Positions 9,613 to 45,659 of a stretch of 64,000 bases of DNA are shown here, piece by piece. Location of the stretch: positions 132,269 through 196,268 of the forward strand of contig CAZWWH010000001.1 of NCBI GenBank assembly GCA_964637365.1, given 5' to 3'. This DNA is from an uncultured Peptococcaceae bacterium. GTDB taxonomy: Bacteria; Bacillota; Dehalobacteriia; UBA7702. Made by a program: the position numbers and the translations under genes. The notes under the pieces are model-generated. The model had not been told where the DNA came from, did not search any database, and saw nothing but the letters and a program-made list of their open reading frames with translations. The stretch's first letter is position 1. Every line of letters begins with the position of its first letter.

Positions 9613-9676
9613 ATTTCATTCTCCTTTTTTGTTTTGTCGCAAACAAGTCGTGTCGTGTTTTTCACAAGTATGTAAA

Positions 9677-9692: not shown

Positions 9693-9759
9693 AAACCCAT
9701 ATTTTTTCCACGATTCTTTTTCGCTACATATAGATATGGAATAAAGGAGTCAATAACTG

Positions 9760-9910
9760 ATTCTATAGGCGTCATGTAAATATTTATTGCCGCAATAAAT
9801 ATTTCATCTATAAAAAATCGCAATAAAAATTGCTACTTCGGCACAAACTATTTTTGACAATTTTCATTGCCTATTCAGGAAAAACGACATTTTTATTGCG
9901 CAATATTTCT
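9760..9910. promoter_or_regulatory. candidate activator-binding palindromes
   Basis: TTTATTGCcGCAATAAA (perfect 8+8 palindrome), AATCGCAATAAAAATTGCTA and ATTGCGCAAT; same TTGC-N-GCAA theme as at 6480-6550. Confidence 0.45.
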
Positions 9911-9987
9911 TGCGGTATGCTTTTTGCATATATCATATTAACAAAGAGGCACAAAGCATAAACCAAACCGAGAAAGGAGGAAACTCA

Positions 9988-24314: not shown

Positions 24315-24325
24315 AGTGTACCTCC

Positions 24326-24997
24326 TTAACCCATATACTCGCCGTTATAGCTCACAAGAACTGCACTGTTTACGCCGGGCATAGTGCTCAGAGCATTGAT
24401 AAAATCGGTATTATCGTTTACCATACGAATTTCGAGATTCAGTTCAATCAATCCTTTGGTTGCCGTCTTGCTCTTAACAACGCATTTTTGAACATTACCT
24501 TTGAGAAAATCCACCGCTTTGTTTTCGGCCATAGAATCAGCGCAGGAAAGAACAACGATATAAGGATTGTAATAAGATTTCTTGTTTACGAACACAAGAA
24601 GGATTGCGCCGATGATAACGCTGCCGATTACTGCAAGAGGAATAAAACCGGCTGCAAGCACAATGCCGACTGCGATTGCCCAGAAAAGAAACGCAATATC
24701 GAGGGGTTCTTTAATAGCGGTACGGAATCGAACAATAGAAAGTGCACCAACCATACCAAGCGAAAGAACCACGTTAGAAGTTACCGCTAAAATAACAACG
24801 GTGGTGATCATCGTGAGGGCAACGAGCGTTGTTCCAAAGCTGGAGGAATACATAACGCCCTGATAGGTCTTTTTATATACGAGGAAAATAAACATACCGA
24901 TGCCGAAGGCAAGAGCCAAGGCAATCGCCATATCGAGAATACCCACGCTTGCGATATTCTCCAAAAAACTTGATTTGAAAATGTCATTGAAAGTCAT
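24326..24997 (-). CDS. DUF4956-domain membrane protein
   Basis: 223 aa, 4-5 TM helices plus a C-terminal soluble domain; fits the DUF4956 family that co-occurs with VTC-domain and CotH proteins. Confidence 0.55.
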   Translation of the reverse strand: MTFNDIFKSSFLENIASVGILDMAIALALAFGIGMFIFLVYKKTYQGVMYSSSFGTTLVALTMITTVVILAVTSNVVLSLGMVGALSIVRFRTAIKEPLDIAFLFWAIAVGIVLAAGFIPLAVIGSVIIGAILLVFVNKKSYYNPYIVVLSCADSMAENKAVDFLKGNVQKCVVKSKTATKGLIELNLEIRMVNDNTDFINALSTMPGVNSAVLVSYNGEYMG

Positions 24998-25026
24998 AAT
25001 ACTTACTCCTTATAATTTTTATTATT

Positions 25027-25698
25027 TTAGCCGTAGATTCTGCAAACGGCGTATTTGGAAAAAGCGCCAACACGGCGGTTATTAAGTTGGACAGCATCCC
25101 GAATAATGTCCGGCAAATACTCGTCCCATTTTACTTCAAGAATGATCGGTGTCTCGCCTGCAGGAACCGTAACACAGTTTGGATTCAGAAAGTCCGTACA
25201 GTTCATTCCTGTGCGGATGTTATAGTCAAGGGTTACTCGAACATTACCGGGTGCAAAAACAAAGGGTTCTCTTAGATAATCCACGATAGTTTTTGGGCGC
25301 AATCCCTGACCTTTCATCTTACTGTATAATTCCTGAATCAAAGGAACACCGCTATCCATCATCCAATTATAATCACCGTTTGCAATCGCCTGCGCTTGTT
25401 CTTTGGACAGTGTTGCATTGTCTTTCAAACACAAACCATTGACTTTGCTTTTCTTCTCTAAATGAATCAAGGATGTGTCGTTGTTATAATATCGAATGCG
25501 GAACTTTTCACGGACATTCACACTGTCAACCTTTTCTCTTAGTGCCTTATCGGATGCGTTATCAAAATATAAACTGCGGATCAGATACTTGCCGTCAATA
25601 GCGTGGGCATCTCGTTTCATAACGGCAGACAAACGCTGACGGAGAACAAGCATATCACCGTAGCTGATTTCGTGCTTCCATTCGTGTCGGTATTTCAT
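25027..25698 (-). CDS. VTC-domain (polyphosphate-polymerase/triphosphate-tunnel-like) protein
   Basis: 223 aa; N-terminus MKYRHEWKHEISYGD…RQRL…IRSLYFDN… and conserved Lys/Arg/Glu pattern of bacterial VTC (CYTH-like) domains. Confidence 0.6.
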   Translation of the reverse strand: MKYRHEWKHEISYGDMLVLRQRLSAVMKRDAHAIDGKYLIRSLYFDNASDKALREKVDSVNVREKFRIRYYNNDTSLIHLEKKSKVNGLCLKDNATLSKEQAQAIANGDYNWMMDSGVPLIQELYSKMKGQGLRPKTIVDYLREPFVFAPGNVRVTLDYNIRTGMNCTDFLNPNCVTVPAGETPIILEVKWDEYLPDIIRDAVQLNNRRVGAFSKYAVCRIYG

Positions 25699-27805: not shown

Positions 27806-28189
27806 TTAGTTGTAAATTATATCGTAATTTACGATTTCTGTGGCTCTGCTGCGGATGTTATTCATCCGAGAAACCCATTCCATTTGACTGTCAGCTTTGA
27901 GTTGTTCGGTCACGCCCTCACGCTCTGCCATCTGTTCTACGAGCCGAAAAAACATATCCTCAGTCTGCTTGTTTACATCGGCAAGGTGCCTGTTCAGTTC
28001 ACATTGTGTGAGTAAGGTTGTATAAAACCCTTTGCGGTGCACCTTGATATACTGCAAGTGCCGCTGTCCCCAAATACCGATAGGCTGTTTTTCTTCATTG
28101 GGGAGTGCAAGGTCGGGCAAGTAGTAATCTCCGTGCAGAGTGTAGCTAATGCTCGTCTGTTCGTTATAAATGTGCTTCTCCATCATCAC
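27806..28189 (-). CDS. TnpV-like small protein (transposon-associated, Tn4451-family accessory protein)
   Basis: 127 aa; the …ISYTLHGDYYLPDL…PIGIWGQRHL…QMEWV… pattern resembles, from memory, TnpV proteins carried on Firmicute conjugative/mobilisable elements; not verified by search. Confidence 0.45.
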   Translation of the reverse strand: MMMEKHIYNEQTSISYTLHGDYYLPDLALPNEEKQPIGIWGQRHLQYIKVHRKGFYTTLLTQCELNRHLADVNKQTEDMFFRLVEQMAEREGVTEQLKADSQMEWVSRMNNIRSRATEIVNYDIIYN

Positions 28190-28376: not shown

Positions 28377-28676
28377 TTACTCCTTTAACAAATCTTGAAA
28401 CGGTGTGTCGGTGACTACGAAGGTATCGTATGTGAAGTTGGCTCCCAAGCGAAACCACATCATATAACTGTCAAGATTGGATTCGCCGTTTACCACGCTC
28501 CACGCATTAACGAAATCGAGAAACTTTTTCTTATTTTCAACCGATAGCCGTTCTGTTAGGAAATCTTCATTGAGCATCAAGACCTTCATTTGCTTTTGCA
28601 CCGCTTTGTTCTGCTTTGTGCTTCGTTCCTGTGGATCAATGTTGCCGTAATAAAATTCTTCTATAAATTTACCCAT
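28377..28676 (-). CDS. hypothetical 99-aa protein (first gene of the same-strand array)
   Basis: ORF with Firmicute codon usage; no recognisable motif. Confidence 0.45.
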   Translation of the reverse strand: MGKFIEEFYYGNIDPQERSTKQNKAVQKQMKVLMLNEDFLTERLSVENKKKFLDFVNAWSVVNGESNLDSYMMWFRLGANFTYDTFVVTDTPFQDLLKE

Positions 28677-28990: not shown

Positions 28991-29272
28991 CTATGGCTTT
29001 CGTTGAATCTTTACCTTGGCCTGATGCTCTGCAGCATATTTTTTTCGCGTGGCTTCGCCGCCTCGAAGGTGACGTTCGGCCTTGTTGATTTCTAATATCT
29101 GGCGCACTTTTTGTGCCGTTGCTTCATTAATCATCGGCAATCGCTCCGTCATATCCTTATGTACCGTTGACTTACTCACACCAAAAATGGCAGCGGTCTG
29201 ACGTACTGTGGCCGAGGATTCCATGATATAGCTGCTGATCTCCAGGACCCGTTTTTCAATATAATCCTGCAT
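28991..29272 (-). CDS. spoIIID: stage III sporulation transcriptional regulator SpoIIID
   Basis: 93 aa; …FGVSKSTVHKDMTERLP…RHLRGGEAT… is near-identical in the HTH core to Bacillus SpoIIID. Confidence 0.9.
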   Translation of the reverse strand: MQDYIEKRVLEISSYIMESSATVRQTAAIFGVSKSTVHKDMTERLPMINEATAQKVRQILEINKAERHLRGGEATRKKYAAEHQAKVKIQRKP

Positions 29273-32664: not shown

Positions 32665-33495
32665 TTACTCCACTTTCGCCAAGTCATTACGGACATAGCC
32701 ACTTTCACCATCGTCCAAAACAATGTGATACCAGCCATCGACTTCTTCCAGGTAAATGCCGGAATCTCCCCGATCCAATCGAGTAACCTCATCGGAGTCT
32801 ACAGTGGCTTCGGAACGGATTCTGGCAAAGCTGTTGGTAATCACTACTTTTCGTGTGGGAGCTGAAGATGGATTGGTTCCATTCGCCTCAGAAACCAAAT
32901 CAGAGGAAACATAACCTTTCGTATCATCTGCCATACGTACATGAATCCAACCGTTGCTTTCCCCCAACTGCTCCATGGTATCGCCCTCTAAGGCGAAAGC
33001 CACTATCTCACTATCTTGGGAAGCTTGGGCGCGAACATTCACATAAAGTCCAACGGGGGAAACCAAAGTTGTTTTTTCTTTTTCTTCGGAATCTTTTTGG
33101 GAAGTTTCTTTTTCCTCTGAAGTGTCTTTATCAGAAGATTTTCCACTGTCCTCTGTGACCAATGACATCTTCACCGAAGGCACATAGCCGGAAACACCAT
33201 CCATAACTTCAACATATAGCCAATTAGGCTCATCCTGATGAATGCATGATACCTCTGTATTTTTGGGAAGGCTCATCAGAACTTCTGAGTCCATATCGGC
33301 ACTGGCATGAACATTAACAATATTGTCTCCCGTAGTGACAATTTTTCCGGAAAGGTCCTTAGTGGCTTCATCCCCGAAACCCAACATGGCAGGGAGTCCG
33401 GCAATTCCACCATTCTGATTAATATGTCCCAACAGAAATCCACCAGCCAAACTCGCCACAGAAATGATAAAGACAGTTACTACTTTTTTCCACAC
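32665..33495 (-). CDS. membrane-anchored protein with three bacterial SH3 (SH3_3) domains
   Basis: N-terminal TM, then three repeats of the N..V.VR…..S.V…L..G…..E..GW..V….G..GYV pattern separated by an acidic/Ser-rich linker. Confidence 0.65.
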   Translation of the reverse strand: MWKKVVTVFIISVASLAGGFLLGHINQNGGIAGLPAMLGFGDEATKDLSGKIVTTGDNIVNVHASADMDSEVLMSLPKNTEVSCIHQDEPNWLYVEVMDGVSGYVPSVKMSLVTEDSGKSSDKDTSEEKETSQKDSEEKEKTTLVSPVGLYVNVRAQASQDSEIVAFALEGDTMEQLGESNGWIHVRMADDTKGYVSSDLVSEANGTNPSSAPTRKVVITNSFARIRSEATVDSDEVTRLDRGDSGIYLEEVDGWYHIVLDDGESGYVRNDLAKVE

Positions 33496-33537: not shown

Positions 33538-34557
33538 CTATTTTTCTTTATGGACACTCAACACACCGATTTTTACAGCGCCAGCCATAATCAAAGCCGA
33601 GGCAAAGACCAACAGCAAAATGCTGTAAACCGAGGGCAACAGTGTTACCATTACGGCAAAAGCCCCCAGCAGGAAGGTAATGCCGTAGATAAACAAAACT
33701 GTATCCTTATGGCTGAATCCACGGGCCATCAACTGATGATGCAGGTGCCCCTTGTCCGCTTCAAAAATAGGCTTATGATTCATTTTTCTGCGGATGATGG
33801 CAAAAAGCGTATCAAGAATAGGGATCCCCAACACCATGATAGGGATAAAGAAGGAAATAATGGTAGCCCCTTCCGATAATCCCAAGAGGGACAGCGCTCC
33901 CACCACGAAACCAAGGAACAAGGCGCCGCAATCCCCCATAAAAAGCTGGGCAGGATGAAAATTATAGCGCAGGAAGCCCAATATACATCCCACCAGGATA
34001 ATAGCAATACTGCCACTGACGGTAAAACCTTTCGCCAAAGCCACCACAGCCAGAGACAGTGCGGCAATTCCCGAAACCCCGGAGGCCAAACCATCAAGAC
34101 CATCAATGAGATTCACAGCATTGGAAACCCCCACGAGCCATAGAAGCGTAATAGGATAACCCAGCCAACCCATATCGAAAATAACGCCATTAATTGGATT
34201 GGTAATAAATTCTAAACGGACGCCAAACCCCATCAGCACCAATGCCGCAATGATTTGACCCAATAATTTCATTTTGGGAGATATATTTTTAATATCATCG
34301 TAAAGCCCTACGGCAACGACAATCGACGCACTGAGAGCCAAACCCACAATCGTATGGGAAAACTCGCCATAAACCAGAATCCCCGCAATAAAACCGCAGT
34401 AAATGCCAAGGCCACCCAAGCGAGTCATAATACCGGTATGAACTTTACGGGCATCGGGTTCGTCATATACACCAAAATGCATGGCCATTTTTTTTGTCAA
34501 TGGCGTTACCAACAATGATATAACGACTCCGGCCAGGAAAGCAATCAATAATCTCAT
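33538..34557 (-). CDS. tagO: UDP-GlcNAc:undecaprenyl-phosphate GlcNAc-1-phosphate transferase (TagO/WecA, MraY-like GT4 family)
   Basis: polytopic; DD..N (YDDIKN), NAVNLIDGLDGLA and HHQLM motifs of the MraY/WecA family; TGAGGT RBS before MRLL. Confidence 0.8.
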   Translation of the reverse strand: MRLLIAFLAGVVISLLVTPLTKKMAMHFGVYDEPDARKVHTGIMTRLGGLGIYCGFIAGILVYGEFSHTIVGLALSASIVVAVGLYDDIKNISPKMKLLGQIIAALVLMGFGVRLEFITNPINGVIFDMGWLGYPITLLWLVGVSNAVNLIDGLDGLASGVSGIAALSLAVVALAKGFTVSGSIAIILVGCILGFLRYNFHPAQLFMGDCGALFLGFVVGALSLLGLSEGATIISFFIPIMVLGIPILDTLFAIIRRKMNHKPIFEADKGHLHHQLMARGFSHKDTVLFIYGITFLLGAFAVMVTLLPSVYSILLLVFASALIMAGAVKIGVLSVHKEK

Positions 34558-34606
34558 AATAACCTCAATTTGCCAAAACAGAATCACAACTTATTTGCAA
34601 ATTATT

Positions 34607-36142
34607 TTAAGAAGATGCACGTTTTAATTTATGGAGCAAAATCTCTTTCGTATCATTAAATTCCCGCACTTTAAGGATTGCCGCAAAGAGCAAGTAGACA
34701 GTAACGCCCATGATAATACAGCAAAGCACAAGCAGGAACACACTGTTAATGCTGAATACCCCCAGGCACCACTCAGTAAGTTTTACGGCGGCTGCCATCA
34801 ATAATGAGGAAAAGAAGATTTTCCCAAAGGACTGTACCAAGGGGCCGTAATGAAAATGGGGCATATGCTTTTTTAATGCAATAAAGAATACAAGCATATT
34901 TGCAGTTCCGGCCAAAGACGTGGCTAAGGCCAAGCCACCGACACCCATCCATTTCATGGTGAGGAAGCTAATCGCCAGGTTCACAAGAATCCCCGCACCA
35001 CCAGCATAAAGCGGCAGTTTATTATCCTCAAAAGCATAAAAGACTTTTACCATCACCAGTACAACAGCAAAAGGCAGCAGGCCGATAGCATACCACAACA
35101 AGGCAGATGAGGTCATCGCAGTAGCCGTAGCATCAAAGGCACCTCGTTGAAACAACAACGTAATAATGGGTTGGCGTAAAACCATTAAACCAACCGCCGA
35201 AGGAATTCCTAAGAACATGACCAGACCAACGCCTTTATGGATGACGCGATCCAGTCGTTCTTCTTCCCCCTTCATGGCGTATTCCGTCAGATAAGGATAA
35301 ATAGCCACCGCCATGGCAGCTACAAAAATGCCGCCGGGCAGGTTCACGACTTTGCTGGCATAGTTCAGGGCTGAAATACTGCCCTCTGCCAAGCCGGAAG
35401 CAAAAATTCGATTGATAATATAATAAATTTGATTGACCGACGTTCCCAGCACAATAGGAACCAAAGAAACCATCGCCGCCCGAACATCAGGATGATGCCA
35501 TGATAATTTCGCCTGGTAACGAAAGCCTGTTTGGGCCACACTGGGGAGGTGAATCAACATAAAGCCGACAAATCCCAATAAGGTACCAATGGCCAAGCCT
35601 TGAATCCGTGAAACCAAGCACACAGAAATGATAATAATTGCACTGCATAGCGCAGGAGCCGAAGCACTTACCAGAAAACGGTGATTGGCGTTGAGATATC
35701 CTGACAGGACCATGCCGATGCTCATAAACAGAATAGCAGGGAACATGATGCGGGTCAGCTGTACTGCCAAGGCCGCAGTTTCCCCATCAAATAACGGTGC
35801 TGTGATTTTCACCAAAATTGGCGCAAAGGCAATGCCAAGGATCGTGACGATTAGCATGACCAAGGCAACCAGGTTCAAAAAGTAATTTCCTACCAAAAAG
35901 GCTTCTTTTTTATTTTCTTCCAACAAATATTTGGTTAGCAATGGTACTGTTACTGTTACCAAGGCCGAACCCAATACTGCCTGTAAAGAATAGGGTAACG
36001 TATAGGCGACGAGATACGCGTCGGTATACATTGTTGCGCCAAAAGCGCCGGCAATGGCCATCTCCCGGACAAAGCCCAGAAGTTTTGCCACAAAATTCAT
36101 CACAACGATGACTGCCGCCGCCTTTGTAATATTGTTTGCCAT
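34607..36142 (-). CDS. murJ: lipid II / polysaccharide flippase MurJ (MOP superfamily)
   Basis: 511 aa, 14 TM; N-terminal …KLLGFVREMAIAGAFGATMYTDAYLVAYTLP… typical of MurJ/MviN. Confidence 0.8.
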   Translation of the reverse strand: MANNITKAAAVIVVMNFVAKLLGFVREMAIAGAFGATMYTDAYLVAYTLPYSLQAVLGSALVTVTVPLLTKYLLEENKKEAFLVGNYFLNLVALVMLIVTILGIAFAPILVKITAPLFDGETAALAVQLTRIMFPAILFMSIGMVLSGYLNANHRFLVSASAPALCSAIIIISVCLVSRIQGLAIGTLLGFVGFMLIHLPSVAQTGFRYQAKLSWHHPDVRAAMVSLVPIVLGTSVNQIYYIINRIFASGLAEGSISALNYASKVVNLPGGIFVAAMAVAIYPYLTEYAMKGEEERLDRVIHKGVGLVMFLGIPSAVGLMVLRQPIITLLFQRGAFDATATAMTSSALLWYAIGLLPFAVVLVMVKVFYAFEDNKLPLYAGGAGILVNLAISFLTMKWMGVGGLALATSLAGTANMLVFFIALKKHMPHFHYGPLVQSFGKIFFSSLLMAAAVKLTEWCLGVFSINSVFLLVLCCIIMGVTVYLLFAAILKVREFNDTKEILLHKLKRASS

Positions 36143-36156
36143 GGTTCTCCTTTTAA

Positions 36157-37932
36157 TTACGCCTCTTCGGAAGAAAGTTCTTTCTCAGTAGTTTCCTCTA
36201 CGTCAGCTTCCATGGAAAAGATGGAGACCTCCATCTCATCGTCATCCTGTTCCGAAAAGAGATTTGCAGCGTCGACTGAAACGTCGACCGAATTTTCTGT
36301 TCCTGTCGCAGCTCTCGCTGCTTTGCGTTCTTCCAGCAGGGCCATTTTTTCTGCCCGGGTCCGTTTCACATGATCGGATTTACGAATCACCCGCTGGACA
36401 ATGACATCCAATAAAAAATTAATTTGATTGGCTTCTTCACAAAGATTGGGAAGATTTGCCTCCAATGCGGCAACCACTGCGTCAGTATCCCCTACCAGCT
36501 TGCGATAATTGGCAAAGAAGGCGTCACTGTCATACTGTTCCGAATTCCCACAAAGAGGCACACCCACATTGTGACAAAAACTGCTTATCCCCTCTTCACC
36601 GCTGATTGCGGCAAAGGGTTTATATCTCAACGCCGCCATGGTCAAAACAGGCAAATTCATACCGATCACAAGATCTGCGGCGGAAATAATATCCATCAAT
36701 TCCTGAGGCAACAAGGAATCTCCAATATCAAAAATTTCCGCAAATTCTGTCATCTGAGACAGAACGTCTTTGGATATTTTTAAATCACGCTCATATTGGA
36801 AAGGCACAAAAACAACTGTATAACCAAAACGAACGGAATCATCAGCCAAGGACACCAAATCTCCCACGGGTATATGTTCCGATTCGGAAAGGAAGAACAC
36901 GGCCAATTTGGAATCCTCCAAAGCCCACTGCCAAGGAGTCTCATTTAAAAGACGGTGTGAACAAGAAATTTCATTCTGTAAGGAGAGGTCTTCTTTTTGA
37001 ACCGTTTCCTCATCATCAGCCGCTGTCTGGACTACGGTCTCCTCAGTAGACTCATGTTCCGGCTCAGTAATGATAATTTCAATTTCCATGGGAGTATCAA
37101 CGGTGAAACGAGCATCAGCTGCGACTAAAGGTTCTTCATCTTTCGGCAAAAGGCCTTCGGGAACCACTGTAGCAAACTGCTCCATGGGAATATCTATATC
37201 GTCAAGGCCATCAGCGTCAGATTCTTTCTTTGCTTCTTTTTCCAAGGAAGCAAAAGCTTCCGGATCCATCACCACAATTTGCAGTTCCATATCATCATTT
37301 TGATTCACTTCCACAGCAGAATCTGCCGAAGCAGACACTTCCTCCTCTTCTTTCTTCAAGGATTCTTGTTGGATCTTTTCTGACATCGCGACATATTTAT
37401 CCAAATCCCAGCAATGACTGATGGAGGTAAGATTTAGCAACGGGTCCGCAGTGATACTGATACGTCCACGGCGCATTCCCCAATCGCGTAGGCACTCTGC
37501 GGAGTCCTTATCCCGCACTGTGACGCGGGAAACCTTACGCAAGGCATTCACGATCAATTTGCGGCCCAAACCACTTTCCAGGCTACGGAATCCTTGGCCA
37601 TAAACAAATACAGGCTTTTTACGGCGTACGGCCATGCGGATCACTCTGGTATATTCGTAGTAAGAACGAAAATCTGTTTTTTCCCGCATTAAGCTGCTGT
37701 CACCGCAAATCACGATATCTGATTCAAGAATCCCCTTGTGAAGCTGGGACCACCGGCTACGGTCATAGGCAATGACTCCATAAGCAGCTGCGGTTTCCTC
37801 TGGATCGTCAGAAAAAACAACGATTTCTACATCTTCAATATGATTCCGCAGTGACTCTATTAATGAAAGTAAAGTCAACTCGTCGGCGGCAATTCCGCAA
37901 CCATAATACCCGGAAATACAAACTTTTATCAT
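36157..37932 (-). CDS. polysaccharide pyruvyl transferase (CsaB-like) with an internal ~120-aa highly acidic insertion and acidic C-terminal tail
   Basis: N-terminal pyruvyl-transferase fold (ISGYYGCGI…DIVICGDSS…VFVYGQG) interrupted by an E/D-rich low-complexity region (EEEEVSASADSAVEVNQNDDME…EEPLVAADARFT…); fold resumes afterwards; tail DDDEMEVSIFSMEADVEETTEKELSSEEA. Confidence 0.6.
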   Translation of the reverse strand: MIKVCISGYYGCGIAADELTLLSLIESLRNHIEDVEIVVFSDDPEETAAAYGVIAYDRSRWSQLHKGILESDIVICGDSSLMREKTDFRSYYEYTRVIRMAVRRKKPVFVYGQGFRSLESGLGRKLIVNALRKVSRVTVRDKDSAECLRDWGMRRGRISITADPLLNLTSISHCWDLDKYVAMSEKIQQESLKKEEEEVSASADSAVEVNQNDDMELQIVVMDPEAFASLEKEAKKESDADGLDDIDIPMEQFATVVPEGLLPKDEEPLVAADARFTVDTPMEIEIIITEPEHESTEETVVQTAADDEETVQKEDLSLQNEISCSHRLLNETPWQWALEDSKLAVFFLSESEHIPVGDLVSLADDSVRFGYTVVFVPFQYERDLKISKDVLSQMTEFAEIFDIGDSLLPQELMDIISAADLVIGMNLPVLTMAALRYKPFAAISGEEGISSFCHNVGVPLCGNSEQYDSDAFFANYRKLVGDTDAVVAALEANLPNLCEEANQINFLLDVIVQRVIRKSDHVKRTRAEKMALLEERKAARAATGTENSVDVSVDAANLFSEQDDDEMEVSIFSMEADVEETTEKELSSEEA

Positions 37933-38100
37933 GGTTTCATCCCTTCCCAACCCGATCCTTGGTCATAGAACCTTTCTAATATTCATCGGATCTGTGGTTT
38001 TATACATATAAAACTAACCTATATTATAATAAAAAAAAGACAATTCATCAAGTTTTTTCACAATAAAAGTGGAAAAGCGACACAGAAAGATGCCGCAAAC

Positions 38101-38135
38101 CAAAAAGAGCAGGGGAGGTTTGCCCCCATGCTCTT
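38101..38135 (-). terminator. rho-independent terminator after tagA
   Basis: AGAGCAtGGGGG…CCCCTGCTCT hairpin followed by TTTTT on the minus strand. Confidence 0.6.
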
Positions 38136-38142
38136 TATATAA

Positions 38143-38868
38143 TCATTTACAATCCTTCTTGACTAAGGACATAAACTTGGGTAACGCCATGGTGCGTTTC
38201 AAACGCTTTGGATCGGCGCAAAGGCGGTAAAACCATTCCAGACCGGTTTTCTGAAAAAACCTCGGCGCTCGTTTCACATTACCGGAAAGCACATCCAAGC
38301 TGCCGCCAACGCCAATTGCTACATGAATATTTGCAGCGTCATGGTACTGCGTAATCCATTGATCCTGACGGGGGAATCCCATGGCCACGAAGAGGATATC
38401 TGTTTGAGCCGCAGCAATTTCCCGAGCGATGGCGGGACTTTCTTCCTCCTTAAAGTAACCGTCACGATAACCGACAATTTCCGCTTGAGGATAATCCCGG
38501 CGAATATTGGCCACAGCAGCCTCCACCACTTCAGGATGGGCTCCCAAGAAATAAAAACGATGTTTTCCTTGGGACAACAAATTTTGTACCAGGTCAATGC
38601 CGGAGACGCGCTCTCTCAGGGGTGTACCATACCGTTCCGCCGCCCAGAGAATCCCCGAGCCATCGGCAGTAATATAATCCGCAGTCTCTACAATAGAGCG
38701 AATTTCACTGTTAGTAGCTGCAGCATAGGCAATTTCCGCATTCATGGTCACGATGCGGGAAAAGCCTCCTTCATCTACCACACGATCAATATAGGCCAAG
38801 GTTTCTTCCATAGATGCATCCACCACAGGAAGTCCCAGGACATGAATTTCTTTTCCTTTTGTCGCCAT
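38143..38868 (-). CDS. tagA: WecB/TagA/CpsF-family glycosyltransferase (UDP-ManNAc transferase, TagA-like)
   Basis: 241 aa; …ITADGSGI…FFLGA…FVAMGFPRQ(D/E)…WFYRL… family signature. Confidence 0.8.
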   Translation of the reverse strand: MATKGKEIHVLGLPVVDASMEETLAYIDRVVDEGGFSRIVTMNAEIAYAAATNSEIRSIVETADYITADGSGILWAAERYGTPLRERVSGIDLVQNLLSQGKHRFYFLGAHPEVVEAAVANIRRDYPQAEIVGYRDGYFKEEESPAIAREIAAAQTDILFVAMGFPRQDQWITQYHDAANIHVAIGVGGSLDVLSGNVKRAPRFFQKTGLEWFYRLCADPKRLKRTMALPKFMSLVKKDCK

Positions 38869-38869
38869 T

Positions 38870-39937
38870 TTATTGCGAATCCCCCGTGCTGTTATTACCG
38901 ACAGAGACTTTCCCTGCGCTACGTTCCATGGATTCTATAACGTCTGAAGGCATTTCTTCATAATTGTTCAAGGCGTTAAAGAAAGCGTCCCTGGTAGAAT
39001 CGAAAATAAAGAAATAGCTGACTCCATCCTGGTAACGGCCTTCACCCGGCGGTGTATAGGTGCTCATTTCCACACCGTCCTTCAGATTCATAAAAATCTG
39101 CAAGAGCTGTGTGCCGGTGAGGTTCGTAGATACATTGGTCTTAATAGCAGTGCAGAGATCAGGAATTTTCAATAAAGTACCAGCGGAGAACATTTGCTCC
39201 TTCAGAGTGGTCATAAACAGTTGCTGACGGGCCACACGACCGATATCGCCCTGCCCATCACTGCGGAAGCGGCAGAACTGGAGCGCTTGGTCACCGTTGA
39301 GCGTTTGGAGACCCGGCTGAAGGTCAATGCCTTCGCCATCATATTTCATGCGCATGGGAACATCAATGGTGATACCGCCCAAGGCGTCGATAACATCACG
39401 GAAGCCCTGAAAATCAATTTGCGCCATAAAGTCAACTTCAATATCGAAATTATGCTCTAGCGTCGCTTTGGACAGCTCAATGCCGCCATAAACGAAGGCG
39501 TGATTAATTTTCGTTTTTTGCCCGGCATAGGAGCCGCCTTCCGGAGGAATTTCAATATAGGTATCCCTAGGAATGCTTAAAAGGCGCATTTCTTTGGCTT
39601 TCATATCAACGAAAGCAATCATCATGGTATCGGAACGACTTTTCGTTTCTCCAGGACGAGCGTCGCATCCCATCATCAAAACGGTGAATTGATCCTTGTC
39701 AAAGGCAATTCCCTCATCCTCGGCAGCTTCCAGTTCAGCAGTGCCACTGAGATCGCCCCAAATCAGAGGATAAACGTAAGCCCCTACATAACCGACCCAA
39801 CCAAAAACCAGGACACATACGGCGAGTATACCCACAAAAATCCAGTTATGAATTTTTTTGCGCCGTTTTAAACGGTCTTTTTCCGTTTTTATGGGGTTTG
39901 ATATGATTTCATCTTTCGGCGTTTTTTTTCTGAACAT
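38870..39937 (-). CDS. LytR-CpsA-Psr (LCP) family cell-wall polymer ligase
   Basis: N-terminal TM plus LCP domain (…TVLMMGCDAR…RSDTMM…SIPRDTY…). Confidence 0.8.
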   Translation of the reverse strand: MFRKKTPKDEIISNPIKTEKDRLKRRKKIHNWIFVGILAVCVLVFGWVGYVGAYVYPLIWGDLSGTAELEAAEDEGIAFDKDQFTVLMMGCDARPGETKSRSDTMMIAFVDMKAKEMRLLSIPRDTYIEIPPEGGSYAGQKTKINHAFVYGGIELSKATLEHNFDIEVDFMAQIDFQGFRDVIDALGGITIDVPMRMKYDGEGIDLQPGLQTLNGDQALQFCRFRSDGQGDIGRVARQQLFMTTLKEQMFSAGTLLKIPDLCTAIKTNVSTNLTGTQLLQIFMNLKDGVEMSTYTPPGEGRYQDGVSYFFIFDSTRDAFFNALNNYEEMPSDVIESMERSAGKVSVGNNSTGDSQ

Positions 39938-40092
39938 GATATCGAAATCCTCAAATAAATTCTTTTGTAAACCAATAAACTTGAGTAATTATATCATATT
40001 ATTTCATATAATTCAAAAAAAATTGTGACAGAATTAGGCATTTTAATAAATATTTCGCATTAATTCAGCAAATATACATTAATTCTCCATAT

Positions 40093-41379
40093 TTAAAGCT
40101 GTTCCACGATGATTTTATAATGAGATTCTACTTCATAAACAACTTTTTCCAAATCAATGGTAGGAAATTCTCCATCACGGTAGACAATTCGTCCATCACT
40201 CATGGTAAGGCAAACATCACTGCCTTCTGCAGCGTAGACCAAATGATTTACTAAATGAGTGGCAGGCTGCCAATGAGGCTCTTTTAAATCAATCACAATC
40301 AAATCCGCCCGCATTCCAGGTTTGATAACACCACAATCATCACGGCCCTGGGCTTTTGCGCTGTTGACAGTAGCGGCGGCCAAGGTTTGTGCCGGCGTGA
40401 TCACCGTGGGGTCGTTACTGCTCCCTTTATGAATCAGGGCGAAAACATTCATTTCCTGAATCATGCTTAAATTATTATTACTAGCCACACTGTCGGTTCC
40501 CAGAGCCACATTGATACCTTTTTCAAAAAATTTGGGAACCGGAGCAATGCCGCTGGCCAATTTCAGATTGCTGACAGGGCAATGGCCCACGGAAACACCT
40601 TTTTCCGCCATAATTGCCATGTCATTTTCATCCACCCAAACACAGTGAGCGGCAGTCGTGGGCAAATCAAAAATCCCCAATTCATTGAAGTAGGCTGCCG
40701 GCGTTTTGCCGTGACGCTCCAGGGAAGCCTCATGCTCTGCTTTCGTTTCGGAAAGATGGAGATGCATCCGGCAATTCTTCGTTTTGGCGTATTCCGCCAC
40801 ACCGGTCACCACCTTAGGCGAAGAGGTATATTCCGCATGAAGACTCATGTCAATGCGGATACGACCGTCTTCTGCCATATGGTACTCGGAAAACAGCATT
40901 TCATTGGCGGGGTAATCCTCCAATTCATAAAAGCTCCGATCATCAAAACAGAGGGTACCAGTACTGTAATTCGTTTTAGCACCACTTTCAATAAAGGCCT
41001 TCAGCAATGCTTCAGCCTGCATATACATGTCAGTAGTGGCCACAGTACCACTGCGGAACATCTCAGCGATCCCCAGAAGCGCTCCATAATAAACGGAATC
41101 CGCTGTGAGATGGGACTCAAAGGGAAAAATTTTTTGATTGAGCCAATCCTGAAGAGCCATATTTTCGCCATAGCCCCTCATCAAAGTCATGGGCGTATGG
41201 GCATGGGAATTGTAAAAAGCGGGCGTCAACAGTTTACCGCTGCCATCGTATATTTCGCCGAAATCATCTTGGGGCATTTCACTTCCCACATACATAATAC
41301 GGCTATCCTTAACACCGATATAGCGATTAGGCTCAATCTCAAAATTCTCATTTAACAACAAAACATTTTTAAAAAGCAT
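40093..41379 (-). CDS. amidohydrolase-family deaminase (5'-methylthioadenosine/S-adenosylhomocysteine deaminase MtaD-like)
   Basis: HAH…H metal-binding site (YNSHAHTPMTLMRG), HLSE, GTDS motifs of the MtaD/chlorohydrolase family. Confidence 0.7.
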   Translation of the reverse strand: MLFKNVLLLNENFEIEPNRYIGVKDSRIMYVGSEMPQDDFGEIYDGSGKLLTPAFYNSHAHTPMTLMRGYGENMALQDWLNQKIFPFESHLTADSVYYGALLGIAEMFRSGTVATTDMYMQAEALLKAFIESGAKTNYSTGTLCFDDRSFYELEDYPANEMLFSEYHMAEDGRIRIDMSLHAEYTSSPKVVTGVAEYAKTKNCRMHLHLSETKAEHEASLERHGKTPAAYFNELGIFDLPTTAAHCVWVDENDMAIMAEKGVSVGHCPVSNLKLASGIAPVPKFFEKGINVALGTDSVASNNNLSMIQEMNVFALIHKGSSNDPTVITPAQTLAAATVNSAKAQGRDDCGVIKPGMRADLIVIDLKEPHWQPATHLVNHLVYAAEGSDVCLTMSDGRIVYRDGEFPTIDLEKVVYEVESHYKIIVEQL

Positions 41380-41393
41380 TGATGTCTCCTAAT

Positions 41394-41804
41394 TTACTTT
41401 TCCAGGGTTTCCAGCAATTCACAAGCGCAATCAATATAACCGGAGCAAAGTTGTTTTTTATAAGCAGGATCTTCCTTTGCTCTATCATTCACCAATTTGG
41501 CGCATTTCAAGGAGCCATTTTTGGCTTTAAACTGTTTACACAGCTCCTGCACGTTTGCATAGGTATCCTGCTTTGTTTGACCTACCTTGTCCAAGGAGGC
41601 GTCAGACTTCATCCCAGCCACCATAATCATGCCGCTGACAGCGCCGCAAACATCCTTCATACCCATACCGCCGCCGAAGCCCTCAGACAGACGATAGGCA
41701 GCGCTTTCATCAATGCCCAGTTCCTCTGCGTAAGCGCAGAGCACCGATTGAGCGCAGTTGTATCCGCAAGTAAATTTTTCCTTCGCTTTTTCTCTTTGAC
41801 TCAT
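41394..41804 (-). CDS. C_GCAxxG_C_C-family protein
   Basis: FTCGYNCAQSVLCAYAEELGI… matches the C-GCAxxG-C-C signature. Confidence 0.7.
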   Translation of the reverse strand: MSQREKAKEKFTCGYNCAQSVLCAYAEELGIDESAAYRLSEGFGGGMGMKDVCGAVSGMIMVAGMKSDASLDKVGQTKQDTYANVQELCKQFKAKNGSLKCAKLVNDRAKEDPAYKKQLCSGYIDCACELLETLEK

Positions 41805-41847
41805 TATTTCCGTTCCTTTCAATGATGTTTTCTTTTAAATTTATTAT

Positions 41848-44073
41848 TTATTTTTGCAAAAGCTGCCGCAAATAGGCTTCATTTTTGTGGGCCCGTTCCT
41901 TCATTAAGGCAGAGTTTTTTTTCAGATGCTCGGCATACTGTTGATAATGTTCCGTCAAATCCTTGACTTTTTCGGAAAGCTCCCGCAAATCAAGGTTTTC
42001 CACATTGCCACCATTGGGCATAGAGAAAGCGTCAAGATAATAAAGGATTTTAGGGTCATAAACCAAGCCGATAAAGGGAATCGCCATATGGGCGGAAAAA
42101 ATCAGAGTATGAAGCCGCATGGCAATAATAAATTCCGCTTCTCCGACCACACTCATGAGCTCCTTAGAGGAAACCGGAGAGTCAAGAACATAGGCGGGAT
42201 GCTTCATCATGTTCCGTATCTCGCGACTGATGGCAACATCATGAGGCACCTGCATGGCAATAAATAAAATATTTTTGCCATAGAATTCATGAATCTCGTC
42301 ACAGAGTGCCGCGATTTTTTCGCAAAAACCTTCCATATTGGGCCAATTACGAACTGATACTGCGACAAATGGACGATCCCGCGGAACGCCACACTGCTCT
42401 AAAAGCGTATCGGCATAATGCTCCGGCGGCGCTTCCATGGTGAAAACAGGGTCGCTTGTCACATAAACATGTTCGTTGACAATCCCCATAAGCTGCAGTT
42501 CTTTGGCAGAATTCTCATCCCGTAAAGTGATGATATCAGCTTTATTCAATAATCTTCGTACAAGATGACGGTTAAATTTTTTCCGCACTGGACCAATGCC
42601 GTTGGCATAGAGCATTACCTTTTTTCCCATCAATTCTGCCAAGCAAATAATAGAGAGATAGTACCACAGAGAACGGGTAGATGTACGGTCCTGCAAAAGA
42701 CTGCCGCCGCCGGATACCAAAACGTCGCAGCGACGGATGGCGCGCATTACCTCCCGAAAATGGAAGCGGTGGGTGGTTTGGTAACCATAGGCCTTGGCTG
42801 TGGCTTCGGGGTCATTGGACAACACCGAAATTTCCACTCGTTCCCCTATGGACTGAATATTGGCATAAACTGCCTGTAAAATGGCCTCATCACCACTGTT
42901 GCCAAAGCCATAATAGCCGCTGATTAAAACGTGATACGTTTTCTCTTTGCTCCACACTGTGTCGTAAGCCTTGAGACAGTCATCGGTCATACGGGCAACA
43001 GAGTAATATTTCAAAATGACGCTGCGTCCATAATCTCCTATGGCTTGTTTTTGCTCCGCTTCCATATGGCGGAAAAAATGCATGATGTCATCAAACAGCA
43101 ATTGAGCCGTCGGCATCTGGCAGCCACGGCAACAAAAATTTCCTTCCCGAGCCACTGCCAAATGCTCTTGGGAAAATAAACCGATATAGCCCTGACTTCC
43201 GGCTACAATAACAGGTTTGGAGGTAGCCATGGCCTCCAAAGCGGCGCGGGACACCCCGACGAACAAATCACCTACTGCCACAATTTCATTGATATCAGTG
43301 CGGGGGCCTGCCATAATAACACACTGACGGCCTAAAGCCTCATTGATAGTTTGAGCTCTGGCCTTCAATTCCTGAAAGACATCACCGCCACCCACAATCA
43401 GTAGGCGGATTCCAGGAAGTTCCTCAGATAACTGCGGGGCAAGCTCAATCAGCTGGCGGGCGATCATATCAGTCTCCTGATCCAAACGGCTAACATGGCA
43501 GATAACAGGCCCCCCTTCGGAGAGACTGAATTCCTCCCGAATTCGCGCCCCAGAGGTTTGGGGAGCAAACTTTTTGGTATCAATGCCATTGATGGTAAGG
43601 AAAATGTCCTCTTCAGCAGTATTATATTGTTTCATCAGATACTGTTTGATATCTTCGCTGACGGCAATGGTTTTTTGCCCCCAATCGGTAATATAGCGCA
43701 AAATCCCGTCAGTATCAAAAACCCCATGAGCCGAGGTAACAAAGGGGAAGCCATACTTTTTATGAAGCTTCCCGCAAATAAAACCGGGAATACGGGCATG
43801 GGCGTGAACAATATCGGGTTTTTCCTTTTGGATAATTTTCTTCATGGAACGGTACGATTGCCACATGGTGAAAACATTGCGGCGATTCATGGGAACACAG
43901 TAATGGCGAATTCCCGCCGCCTCAATTTCCGGCACATACACGCCGCCATTGGAAGCAATAAGGACGTCGTATCCTCGCTGCTTTAACTCCTTGGCCAATT
44001 CCACGATATGGGTTTCAGCGCCGCCGATATCAAGGCCCATTGTGGCCATTAAAATCTTATATTTCTGTTCCAT
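41848..44073 (-). CDS. fusion protein: N-terminal GT4 glycosyltransferase + C-terminal polysaccharide pyruvyl transferase (CsaB-type)
   Basis: residues 1-~380 look like GT-B/GT4 (GG.E…, EALA…KPVI); residues ~385-741 repeat the pyruvyl-transferase pattern seen in 36157-37932 (ISGYYGFGNSGDEAIL…VLVSGGGSLLQD…MLYANGIGP). Confidence 0.65.
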   Translation of the reverse strand: MEQKYKILMATMGLDIGGAETHIVELAKELKQRGYDVLIASNGGVYVPEIEAAGIRHYCVPMNRRNVFTMWQSYRSMKKIIQKEKPDIVHAHARIPGFICGKLHKKYGFPFVTSAHGVFDTDGILRYITDWGQKTIAVSEDIKQYLMKQYNTAEEDIFLTINGIDTKKFAPQTSGARIREEFSLSEGGPVICHVSRLDQETDMIARQLIELAPQLSEELPGIRLLIVGGGDVFQELKARAQTINEALGRQCVIMAGPRTDINEIVAVGDLFVGVSRAALEAMATSKPVIVAGSQGYIGLFSQEHLAVAREGNFCCRGCQMPTAQLLFDDIMHFFRHMEAEQKQAIGDYGRSVILKYYSVARMTDDCLKAYDTVWSKEKTYHVLISGYYGFGNSGDEAILQAVYANIQSIGERVEISVLSNDPEATAKAYGYQTTHRFHFREVMRAIRRCDVLVSGGGSLLQDRTSTRSLWYYLSIICLAELMGKKVMLYANGIGPVRKKFNRHLVRRLLNKADIITLRDENSAKELQLMGIVNEHVYVTSDPVFTMEAPPEHYADTLLEQCGVPRDRPFVAVSVRNWPNMEGFCEKIAALCDEIHEFYGKNILFIAMQVPHDVAISREIRNMMKHPAYVLDSPVSSKELMSVVGEAEFIIAMRLHTLIFSAHMAIPFIGLVYDPKILYYLDAFSMPNGGNVENLDLRELSEKVKDLTEHYQQYAEHLKKNSALMKERAHKNEAYLRQLLQK

Positions 44074-44096
44074 GTTTTGATAACTCCTACTTATCT

Positions 44097-45659
44097 TTAC
44101 TTGTGAAAATGAAACACTTTTTTACATAGAGATACTGCCGCCAGCCCCTCTTCAATGCGTAACGCAATGGCTGCCAGAAAATAAACGACAAGCCCGCCTA
44201 AAGTAGGTAGAAAAACCGTGATGATTTTACCAATCATTCCTGAGACAACCCCCTCTACCAGTAGACGAAGGCCATAAACCGCCGCCGCCATAATGAAAGC
44301 GGCCGCAATCACCTTTAGCATATCGAGACAGAATTTTTTGGAAAAAAAACCCATTCCTTTTTTTTCCAAAAAGATCACCAAAATCAGGGCATTGACAACA
44401 CAGGAAATGGATGAAGCCACGGCTAAACCAGCGACATCAAAAGGCTCTGTGAGCACTATACAAAGGAGAATATTGGTGGCAATGGCAAAAATCCCCGCTA
44501 CCAACGGAACTTTGCCGCTTTGCTCCGCAAAGAAAGCGCGGCTCAAAATCGTCTGCACAGTATAGGCTACCATTCCCAATGATAGGAATACCAGGGCACG
44601 GCCGGTAATATCTACAGAAAAGGCGTCAAATTGACCGCCGCCATAAATCAAATCCACACAAGGACGAGCCAAAGTCATGAGTCCCGCCATCAGTGGGATA
44701 ACAAAAAATAAAGATGAGTGTATGACGCTGGCAATCGTTTCCCGAAAGGCGGCATTGTCGTTCCGTGCTGTAAGCCGGGACAATCGTGGAAAGACCACAT
44801 TGGTCACTGACAATACAAAAACTCCGGTCACAATCAAATAAAGGTTGTTGGCAAATTCAATGGCCGAGACACCCGCTCCGTTGAACAAATGAGAGCCAAA
44901 CCGCGTATTAATAGCCAAATTAATCGGCTGCACCCAGGTACTGACCATAACAGGGATCATCAAGGCAAAGACTTTTTTCAGCCCCTCGGAACGAAAATGA
45001 AAAGAGGGACGGTAAAAATATCCTTTTTTCAACAACGAAGGCACTTGAACCGCTGCCTGCAAAAACCAGCTAAACAAAAAGGCTAAGGCCAAGCCGTAAA
45101 TGCCAAAACGGTCATTGAAAAAAATAAAGTACAGAATTACCGCCACATTGGAAACGACGCTAATCAAGGCAGGAATATTAAACTCGTCCATGGATTGGAG
45201 AACACCCACCATGGAAAAGGCAATGCCGGTAAAAAGCACCGAAGGGAACATTACCCGGGTCAGAGACACGCAGAGAGCCGCGGTTTCCTCATCAAATCCA
45301 TTGGCAAAGAGCGTCACAAGCTGGTCGGCAAAAACGATCCCCAAAACCGTCAAAACACAGCAAAGCAGGGAAATCAGAGAAAAAAAATCATTGGAGAAGC
45401 CAAAGGCCACCTTTTTTCCCTTTTTCGTCAAATATTCGCTGAACACAGGAATGAAGCAGGCCGCTACAGCTGAAGCAAAAATAGCGTCAAAAAAGACCCT
45501 GGGAATGCGGCTGGCAGTAAGAAATGCGTTGGTTTCCATGCCGCTGCCATAGGTAACGGAAAGCATACGATCCCGCAAAAGTCCCAATATTTTTCCCAGT
45601 AGAGTCAATATCATGACCCCGCTCACTGTTTTGACTGCGCTTTTTTTTTGTTCTGCCAT
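44097..45659 (-). CDS. second MurJ-family flippase
   Basis: 520 aa, 14 TM; …LLGKILGLLRDRMLSVTYGSGMETNAFLTASRIP… MurJ/MviN N-terminus. Confidence 0.75.
   Translation of the reverse strand: MAEQKKSAVKTVSGVMILTLLGKILGLLRDRMLSVTYGSGMETNAFLTASRIPRVFFDAIFASAVAACFIPVFSEYLTKKGKKVAFGFSNDFFSLISLLCCVLTVLGIVFADQLVTLFANGFDEETAALCVSLTRVMFPSVLFTGIAFSMVGVLQSMDEFNIPALISVVSNVAVILYFIFFNDRFGIYGLALAFLFSWFLQAAVQVPSLLKKGYFYRPSFHFRSEGLKKVFALMIPVMVSTWVQPINLAINTRFGSHLFNGAGVSAIEFANNLYLIVTGVFVLSVTNVVFPRLSRLTARNDNAAFRETIASVIHSSLFFVIPLMAGLMTLARPCVDLIYGGGQFDAFSVDITGRALVFLSLGMVAYTVQTILSRAFFAEQSGKVPLVAGIFAIATNILLCIVLTEPFDVAGLAVASSISCVVNALILVIFLEKKGMGFFSKKFCLDMLKVIAAAFIMAAAVYGLRLLVEGVVSGMIGKIITVFLPTLGGLVVYFLAAIALRIEEGLAAVSLCKKVFHFHK

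Follow-up and report, generated by a model that had tools for sequence, protein, structure and literature searches.

A probable pseudo-pyruvyltransferase and a GT4::CsaB fusion in the wall-polymer locus of an uncultured gut Clostridia lineage

Introduction

The locus analyzed here lies on the minus strand at 32.6-45.7 kb of a 64 kb stretch of genome, called the window in the following, which originates from an uncultured gut Clostridia lineage (Bacillota). It encodes two homologues of the pyruvyltransferase CsaB together with TagO, TagA, a LytR-CpsA-Psr (LCP) ligase and two MurJ-type flippases. This raises the question which roles two CsaB-family proteins play in one wall-polymer locus, the first being fused to a glycosyltransferase family 4 (GT4) domain and the second being split by an acidic insert. 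An earlier note on the same DNA had listed these genes and had called both proteins unusual. All eight open reading frames (ORFs) listed there are present with the domains named, on which Pfam and NCBIfam agree, and the profile matches bear out a wall-glycopolymer locus of the TagO/TagA/LCP kind, in which the CsaB family and the MurJ-type flippases are each represented twice.

In the pathway concerned, TagO primes undecaprenyl phosphate with N-acetylglucosamine (GlcNAc)-1-phosphate and TagA adds a β-linked N-acetylmannosamine (ManNAc). The unit is carried across the membrane by a MOP-family flippase and linked to peptidoglycan by an LCP enzyme. In Paenibacillus alvei, CsaB transfers pyruvate from phosphoenolpyruvate (PEP) onto the lipid-PP-disaccharide (PMC6030368, PMC6801904). 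The exchanges R148Q/K, R207D, H308A/R and Y14A abolish the activity of this enzyme; R306 and K328 line its PEP site, and on the acceptor side it requires Y14 (PMC10435577).

Loss of catalytic residues in the acidic CsaB homologue

The residues defined in P. alvei are nearly invariant in canonical CsaB proteins. Within a set of 136 representatives, R148, R306, H308 and K328 are each found in 134/134 sequences, Q91 in 134, D92 in 131 and the GGG motif in 135. In the acidic CsaB homologue most of them are replaced. The motif GGGSLLQD has become G77-D-S-S-L-M-R-E84, which changes GGG to GDS and QD to RE. At the position of R207 a serine is found, as S-x-R-x-W reads F-L-S349-E-S ('KLAVFFLSESEHIP' vs 'KLAVFSIRQWDNLP' in the intact relative P0151). 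Furthermore, MRLH is changed to M-N426-L-P428, by which R306 is replaced by N426 and H308 by P428, and YDPK is changed to G-E-E-G448 with G448 in place of K328. Only R148 (as R140) and the tyrosines of GYYG (Y13/Y14) are retained. The alignment to the canonical profile with hmmalign dropped most C-lobes of the degenerate proteins; the C-lobe positions were mapped by MAFFT alignments and by comparison with P0151.

A second degenerate clade (L002-L006, L016, P0146-P0149) shows other replacements at the same places, namely GGGHLLRE, F-T-V-S at the R207 motif and S-E-I-Y for M-R-L-H. Here R148 is lost as well, since ITVRD has become ITVAD.

The acidic protein reaches 182.4 bits with TIGR03609, which is below the cut-off of 213.1, and it passes PF04230 with 104.5 bits through its N-terminal half only (profile positions 4-157). 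With 21.1 bits, the isolated C-lobe stays under the Pfam cut-off of 25.3. A PF04230 check of both CsaB proteins had been suggested in the earlier note; the other one matches the full profile (see below).

In the AlphaFold2 model both lobes have a predicted local distance difference test score (pLDDT) above 90, with a predicted template modelling score (pTM) of 0.71, so that the protein is predicted to keep a two-lobe Rossmann-like (GT-B-like) fold. The top fold matches in the PDB are GT-B enzymes including UDP-GlcNAc 2-epimerases (TMt ~0.6, 10% identity).

Based on these replacements, the acidic protein is probably a non-catalytic pseudo-pyruvyltransferase, and this label fits better than that of a polyacidic CsaB variant, because the PEP-binding and catalytic residues are lost. 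An alternative is that it still acts as a PEP-dependent pyruvyltransferase with a rebuilt active site, the insert being mere decoration. The predicted fold, the R148 equivalent and the acceptor-side Y13/Y14 kept in the window clade, the family-specific basic residues RRGR (154-157) and K438, and the position of the gene at the canonical csaB place of the operon would all agree with this. However, at least five positions conserved in 131-135 of 136 canonical sequences are replaced, and single substitutions at three of them inactivate P. alvei CsaB. RRGR is not a compensatory feature either, since the intact P0151 and P0152 also contain it, and the other degenerate clade has lost even R148 (ITVAD). 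A rebuilt pyruvyltransferase is thus considered decidedly unlikely.

That the protein has acquired another enzymatic function, in which the same lipid-linked disaccharide would receive another modification or be served from another donor, is rated as highly improbable. The strong conservation of both lobes in the family with 69 invariant columns, the conserved acceptor side of the N-lobe and the GT-B enzymes such as UDP-GlcNAc 2-epimerases among the best fold matches speak for it. The replaced cleft residues, however, differ between the two degenerate clades (NLP vs EIY, GDSS vs GGGH) and therefore do not suggest a newly formed active site common to both clades, and at a TMt of ~0.6 and 10% identity the epimerase match reflects the common GT-B fold only.

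The acidic insert and tail

The acidic protein can be divided into an N-lobe (residues 1 to ~176), the insert (~181-335), a C-lobe (336-515), a basic helix (516-545) and an acidic tail (546-591). The linker between the lobes comprises ~171 amino acids, compared to a median of 26 and a range of 14-60 amino acids in 97 canonical CsaBs. An extremely acidic insert of ~120 amino acids had been described before. The acidic insert and the acidic tail are real, but the insert measures ~150 amino acids, consists of 28% Asp plus Glu with a net charge of -33, and contains no extreme poly-Glu/Asp tract. The tail has 37% Asp plus Glu, and the C-lobe carries a net charge of -18. In the model, residues 241-308 and 547-591 have pLDDT values below 50 and are predicted to be disordered. 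An origin of the insert from tandem repeats was ruled out, as no tandem repeat is present in its DNA.

Near the start of the insert, a motif E-hydrophobic-E-I-x-hydrophobic-V is found in 16 of the 18 degenerate members and in P0151; speculatively, it could be a docking element. These observations bear on a further explanation, according to which the function resides in the acidic regions, as binding sites for divalent cations or for basic partners at the membrane. The charge of the insert (-33), the Asp/Glu content of the tail and the recurring motif, which suggests a conserved linear element over mere filler, are in line with such a role. On the other hand, across the family the insert ranges from 61 to 207 amino acids in length and its sequence varies widely; between the window and L001, the locus of the closest named relative Candidatus Cryptoclostridium obscurum, its identity is only 37% as compared with 74-75% in the lobes. 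It is predicted to be disordered, a Pfam search with the isolated insert matched no family, and no known metal-binding motif was found in it. In addition, intact enzymes bear the same insert, so that it is not tied to the loss of catalysis. A function residing in the acidic regions therefore appears unlikely, and the binding of metals or cations at the membrane, which the earlier note had proposed, is supported by nothing in the analysis.

Rarity and conservation of the acidic family

The acidic CsaB family is rare. When 1.84 billion representatives were searched exhaustively by HMMER with a profile of the family, ~11 clusters (at 50% identity) scored above 290 bits. Below them the scores fall sharply to ordinary CsaBs of 365 amino acids, among which 3856 representatives had E < 1e-10. 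A metagenome scan added two further loci only. The view that the polyacidic CsaB is unusual can be kept with respect to its rarity, but it had missed the catalytic losses, which make the protein a probable pseudo-pyruvyltransferase.

Despite its degenerate cleft, the ~590-codon ORF is open in at least 18 sequences with identities down to ~30%, and the family alignment contains the 69 invariant columns mentioned above. The gene in the window is the fastest-evolving one of the locus, being 63% identical to the copy in Cryptoclostridium (L001) compared to 71-92% for its neighbours; at this distance from the nearest relative, synonymous sites are saturated. This rate would suit a slowly decaying pseudogene without function. 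Nevertheless, the ORF is intact in every sampled lineage and in independent assemblies, identity is concentrated in the lobes (74-75%) and low in the insert (37%), and the gene has its own promoter-like site and a tight spacing to MurJ1. Since the ORF is intact throughout, the lobes are conserved and 69 columns are invariant, the protein seems to be maintained by selection, and a pseudogene is extremely improbable.

The GT4::CsaB fusion and MurJ2

The second CsaB homologue is encoded, as had been noted before, by one ORF for a single polypeptide of 741 amino acids with an N-terminal GT4 and a C-terminal CsaB part. Its CsaB domain scores 298.7 bits with TIGR03609 (cut-off 213.1; profile positions 2-293 of 301) and 164.8 bits with PF04230 over the full profile (positions 1-280 of 280). 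The GT4 part matches PF13439 with 7.5e-31, and PF00534 and PF13692 also pass. In an alignment of 41 sequences of the fusion family, R518, R575, M652-R653-L654-H655, D673-P674-K675 and G455-G457 are invariant. R518, R575, R653, H655 and K675 correspond to R148, R207, R306, H308 and K328 of P. alvei CsaB, and the GGGS and QD motifs are present as well. The fusion is thus a predicted retaining GT-B glycosyltransferase joined directly to what appears to be an intact ketal-pyruvyltransferase domain, the only one of this kind in the window. Its putative activities, inferred from the conserved residues, would include the PEP-dependent 4,6-ketal pyruvylation of lipid-PP-GlcNAc-ManNAc.

The structure prediction, which had been proposed as a check, agrees with this assignment. 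The AlphaFold2 model has a mean pLDDT of 88.3 and a pTM of 0.58, the domains being confident and their mutual orientation not. In a Foldseek search the GT part matched the retaining GT4 enzymes 7mi0, BshA, HepE, MshA, PglA and PimA with TMt values of ~0.7-0.8. Of the two Glu residues of the EX7E motif in the GT4 domain, the fusion family has kept the second without exception (E280 in 'LEAMA'), and the first one is missing family-wide ('VGVSRAALEAMA'). All 41 aligned fusions also share an invariant 'NFCCRG' (residues 312-316) and an invariant 'HxHARIP' (90-96), neither of which is a usual GT4 signature. A sequence search of the PDB with the CsaB domain of the fusion alone gave no match. The canonical CsaB profile weakly found Pvg1p (5ax7) with E = 0.16, aligned on the RLH and N-terminal GD motifs; this alignment served for residue mapping only.

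The architecture had been taken as unusual, which does not hold: GT4::CsaB fusions are common and already annotated. A word-indexed database search with the fusion returned 4118 matches, and the best 120 of them are all 735-832 amino acids long and combine PF04230 with GT4 families. Among these 120 are proteins of the cultured species Anaerotignum lactatifermentans and Chakrabartyella piscis, named 'polysaccharide pyruvyl transferase CsaB' by NCBI.

The product of the gene upstream of the fusion, MurJ2, shares 48-51% identity with the MurJ portion of the MurJ::Wzy_C proteins beside GT4::CsaB in Chakrabartyella and Anaerotignum, but only 26-31% with MurJ1-type proteins. For MurJ2 and the fusion taken as a pair, the identity to their counterparts in these two genera is 48-62%. 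The two CsaB domains of the window share only 26% identity, and in a neighbour-joining tree the domain of the fusion falls into a different clade from the acidic and insert-bearing sequences. Because of the different affinities of MurJ1 and MurJ2 and the low identity of the CsaB domains, the two CsaB genes appear to belong to two separate modules of different ancestry. A horizontal transfer of the MurJ2/fusion module found no support in its composition, with a GC content of 47% compared to 45-46% nearby.

Intact relatives, DUF5693 and the order of events

An insert at the same site is found in three further proteins, P0151 (GCA_019415505.1), P0152 and the partial P0154. These also have RRGR and an acidic C-lobe and tail, and all of their catalytic motifs are intact. 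In a quick neighbour-joining tree, P0151 and P0152 are sister to the degenerate sequences. The P0151 locus has the order C_GCAxxG-amidohydrolase-LCP-TagA-DUF5693-CsaB-MurJ-TagO-SH3b x3-GlpA-Pyr_redox-DUF1667 and is syntenic with the window. It differs from it by a gene for a DUF5693 membrane protein of 652 amino acids that overlaps the start of csaB, and it lacks the MurJ2 and GT4::CsaB pair. For P0152 the order is DUF5693-CsaB-MurJ-TagO-SH3b.

DUF5693 and intact csaB form a conserved gene pair, which often overlaps. DUF5693 was found directly upstream of canonical csaB in L007, L008, L009, L012 and L030 and just upstream of csaB in L036 (8046-10004) and L038 (8043-10004). It was found neither in the window nor in any of the degenerate loci examined (L001-L006, L016, L040). 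The protein of ~650 amino acids begins with a transmembrane segment, which is followed by a large soluble domain and, at the C-terminus, by a polytopic part. A literature search turned up no paper mentioning DUF5693; orf1 of P. alvei, located upstream of csaB, may be a candidate member.

MurJ1 is 56-58% identical to the MurJ proteins beside intact insert-bearing CsaBs (L036, L038) and 47% identical to that of the canonical CsaB-MurJ-TagO operon in L008. For TagO, the identity amounts to 92% with the L001 copy and to 71-76% with those in L036 and L038. In the simplest history, an active CsaB with the insert would have stood in a DUF5693-CsaB-MurJ-TagO operon. The catalytic residues and DUF5693 would then have been lost, and in the lineage of the window and Cryptoclostridium the MurJ2 and GT4::CsaB genes would have come to lie nearby, carrying the only intact pyruvyltransferase seen there.

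Proposed pathway and role of the pseudo-pyruvyltransferase

Two modules of different origin would answer the question raised by the locus, and this reading is given a probability of roughly 0.58. The resident module seems to be of the widespread Firmicutes CsaB-MurJ-TagO operon type with LCP and TagA upstream, its CsaB now being non-catalytic and kept as a scaffold or adaptor. The second module, MurJ2 and GT4::CsaB, appears to be of the Anaerotignum type and would bring in the only intact pyruvyltransferase of the window. TagO would make undecaprenyl-PP-GlcNAc, to which TagA would add β-ManNAc. The CsaB domain of the fusion would pyruvylate the ManNAc from PEP, and its GT4 domain would add one more sugar. 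The lipid-linked unit would then be exported by a MurJ-type flippase and ligated to peptidoglycan by the LCP enzyme. The degenerate CsaB would act at the cytoplasmic face of the membrane as a scaffold or acceptor-holding adaptor, together with the co-transcribed MurJ1 and TagO; among the conceivable functions of this protein the adaptor role is the most likely one.

MurJ homologues adjoin CsaB in many other loci and are fused to CsaB (P0015) or to Wzy_C (L032, L033). This link to csaB genes suggests that their substrate is the secondary cell-wall polymer (SCWP) precursor, and it makes the export of the lipid-linked precursor by a MurJ-type protein, as assumed in the earlier note, a reasonable proposal. 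A polymerase (Wzy-like or DUF5693) was not found in the window.

Several points weigh against this two-module reading. The adaptor role is derived from the operon position only. The R148 equivalent is kept in the window clade, and the insert-bearing family has conserved basic residues of its own (R154-R155-G-R157 and K438), which leaves some room for a re-wired active site or another anionic donor. The position of R207 was assigned by an alignment across the insertion point. The neighbour-joining tree comes without support values, and the degenerate sequences could have been drawn together in it as an artefact of long branches. Finally, the loci of the other degenerate clade (L002-L006, L016) showed no further CsaB within 10 kb; if these genomes are without one, either pyruvylation was lost there or the degenerate protein works.

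A more elaborate alternative, which must be seen as a long shot, assumes two parallel export streams from one TagO/TagA disaccharide pool. GT4::CsaB would pyruvylate and extend a part of the pool for MurJ2, and the degenerate CsaB would be a substrate-capturing decoy or chaperone that shields a part of it from pyruvylation and passes this part on to MurJ1. The joint loss of DUF5693 and of catalysis would mark DUF5693 as a partner specific for pyruvylated SCWP, i.e., a polymerase or ligase. If this were true, the balance between wall polymer with and without pyruvate would be controlled by a pseudoenzyme.

Locus organization and transcription units

The ORFs of the locus (Table 1) run without interruption on one strand in the transcription order MurJ2, GT4::CsaB, C_GCAxxG_C_C protein, amidohydrolase, LCP, TagA, acidic CsaB, MurJ1, TagO and SH3b x3 protein. 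Two independent assemblies, ERZ27271638 and SRR16188865, show the same gene order, so that an assembly artefact can be excluded. The Pfam matches of TagO, TagA and LCP are all above the cut-offs; with the TarA model NF041710, TagA reaches 196 bits and stays under the equivalog cut-off.

Table 1. Genes of the wall-polymer locus in transcription order, with positions in the window.
Gene product	Position (strand)	Length	Profile matches and domains
MurJ2, MurJ/MOP-family flippase	44097-45659 (-)	520 aa	PF03023 3e-89; TIGR01695 347.2 bits (cut-off 235.55)
GT4::CsaB fusion, single ORF	41848-44073 (-)	741 aa	GT4 families, residues 1-375; CsaB, residues 382-687
C_GCAxxG_C_C protein	41394-41822 (-)		PF09719
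Amidohydrolase, MTA/SAH-deaminase or chlorohydrolase type	40093-41379 (-)		PF01979
LCP glycopolymer-peptidoglycan ligase	38870-39937 (-)		PF03816 4.7e-46
TagA/WecG-family ManNAc transferase	38143-38868 (-)		PF03808 2.4e-62
Acidic degenerate CsaB homologue	36157-37932 (-)	591 aa from ATG at 37932	PS_pyruv_trans
MurJ1, MurJ/MOP-family flippase	34607-36142 (-)	511 aa	TIGR01695 356.5 bits (cut-off 235.55)
TagO/WecA-type UDP-GlcNAc:undecaprenyl-phosphate GlcNAc-1-P transferase	33538-34557/34587 (-)		PF00953 6e-41
Membrane-anchored protein with three SH3b (SH3_3) domains	32665-33495 (-)		PF08239 x3

Transcription units were proposed from the gene spacing and from simple consensus scans. A first unit with a promoter-like site at 45747-45719 is suggested to comprise MurJ2, the fusion and the genes of the C_GCAxxG_C_C protein and the amidohydrolase; the gap between MurJ2 and the fusion downstream of it is 23 nt. 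The second putative unit consists of LCP and TagA with a promoter-like site with an extended -10 region at 40016-39988, and a terminator-like hairpin follows TagA at 38128-38110. The third one seems to start from a promoter-like site at 38051-38023 and to contain acidic CsaB, MurJ1 and TagO, possibly with the SH3b gene; between the acidic CsaB gene and MurJ1 the gap is 14 nt. In the earlier note both CsaB genes had been described as embedded in the pathway. The fusion, however, is not located between TagA and TagO, and the C_GCAxxG_C_C and amidohydrolase genes intervene.

These two genes are probably resident neighbours outside the pathway. The arrangement of the C_GCAxxG_C_C gene with the amidohydrolase and LCP genes is conserved in L001 and L036, and the amidohydrolase gene is kept upstream of LCP in L001-L003, L005, L006, L016 and L036. 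The gene with three SH3b domains follows TagO in every case in this lineage and is syntenic in L001, L003-L006, L016, L036 and L038. Its product has an N-terminal hydrophobic segment and acidic Ser/Glu/Lys-rich linkers between the SH3b domains. As a candidate partner of the polymer, this protein may bind to the wall; a link to pyruvate was not seen.

Other features of the window

Outside the locus, an MttB-family methyltransferase gene (62622-63998, minus strand), which extends past the end of the window, contains one in-frame TAG at 63114-63116 ('...SFVAGG*ADSKLPD...'). The Pfam family MTTB matches on both sides of it (profile positions 84-337 and 357-498). This pattern is of the pyrrolysine codon type, and the organism may therefore decode UAG as pyrrolysine. 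TAG serves as stop in 9 of the 56 listed ORFs of the window. The region 3151-11466 contains uninterrupted MttB-family genes at 4798-6261 and 8152-9612, a BCCT transporter gene (betaine/carnitine/choline; 3151-4695) and two PAS-bearing sigma-54 activators; it looks like a cluster for quaternary-amine demethylation.

At 19396-21374 on the minus strand, a sigma-54 activator is present as two overlapping ORFs, the frame being shifted at a G5 run near 20030. In the other frame the Walker-B sequence 'GTLFLDEIGDM' can be read, which points to a sequencing error or a pseudogene. A cluster of genes for a CotH kinase (724 amino acids), DUF4956 and a VTC domain is located at 22140-25698. TnpV (27806-28189) and DUF6809 (28377-28676) have the look of mobile-element remnants and stand between a two-component system and the SpoIIID gene (28991-29272); the stretch at 24-28 kb has a lower GC content of 41%. 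The SpoIIID and CotH genes point to a spore-former.

Significance

For P. alvei, a review of 2019 stated that no data favour either the Wzx/Wzy or the ABC-transporter route (PMC6801904). The loci compared here, in which CsaB stands beside or is fused with MurJ-type flippases, TagA or GT4, as well as the MurJ::Wzy_C proteins, offer testable candidates for the export and polymerization steps. Chakrabartyella piscis (L032, 4831-7947) and Anaerotignum lactatifermentans (L033, 4770-7919) have the genes for MurJ::Wzy_C proteins of 1038-1049 amino acids next to those for GT4::CsaB and TagA, and these proteins give circumstantial support to a Wzx/Wzy-type route for pyruvylated wall polymers. Fusions of CsaB to other domains are common as well; besides CsaB::TagA (see below), they were observed as CsaB::MurJ (P0015) and in several more cases among the top 150 representatives.

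The DUF5693-CsaB pair vanishes exactly where CsaB loses its catalytic residues, which makes DUF5693, along with the probable pseudoenzyme, a candidate handle on the late steps of the synthesis of pyruvylated wall polymers. With a conserved inactive CsaB, a pseudoenzyme would be proposed for this pathway for the first time, and it would serve as a natural probe of non-catalytic roles of CsaB. The finding overturns nothing, and its practical impact is modest, as the organism belongs to an uncultured gut Clostridia lineage.

Comparison with known systems

The CsaB proteins of P. alvei and Bacillus anthracis (TIGR03609, PF04230) are the closest characterized reference for the fusion, which passes the cut-off and keeps all residues defined by mutagenesis; it differs from them by its N-terminal GT4 domain. 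The acidic protein shares their fold and operon position, but it is without R207, R306, H308, K328, GGG and QD and has an additional insert of ~150 amino acids and an acidic tail. The P. alvei operon has the order orf1-csaB-tagA-tagO (PMC6030368), and TagA and TagO genes are likewise found near the CsaB genes of the window. The window differs from this system in that no S-layer homology (SLH) protein was found near the locus: SLH (PF00395) had no match among the window ORFs scanned, which cover 64 kb of the genome, and a crude SLH regular expression detected no repeats in the window, L001-L006, L016 and L032-L040. As a positive control, the same expression found repeats in the Aquicultor/Actinomycetota loci L013, L015 and L020. 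In Candidatus Aquicultor and other Actinomycetota (L013-L015, L020; 10001-11746 in L013), CsaB::TagA fusions of 581 amino acids are followed by a MurJ homologue, and several ORFs with SLH-like repeats flank them in L013, L015 and L020.

The GT4::CsaB proteins of Anaerotignum lactatifermentans and Chakrabartyella piscis have the same architecture as the fusion in the window, with 55-58% full-length identity and a MurJ-type flippase nearby. Their cluster has the order NAGPA - MurJ::Wzy_C (~1040 amino acids) - GT4 - DUF4330 x2 - GT4::CsaB - TagA. Unlike there, MurJ2 of the window stands alone, and the TagA of the window belongs to the other module.

A non-catalytic GT-B paralogue that aids a catalytic partner is known from the glycosylation of streptococcal serine-rich-repeat adhesins, in which GtfB acts with GtfA. 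The acidic CsaB resembles GtfB as a two-Rossmann-lobe protein that has probably lost catalysis, is retained beside pathway genes and possibly binds the acceptor. GtfB belongs to another protein family, and the likeness is an analogy only.

The nearest counterparts of the acidic CsaB are P0151 and P0152, with which it shares the insertion site, RRGR, the acidic C-lobe and the basic helix followed by an acidic tail. They differ from it by their intact catalytic motifs and by the overlapping DUF5693 gene.

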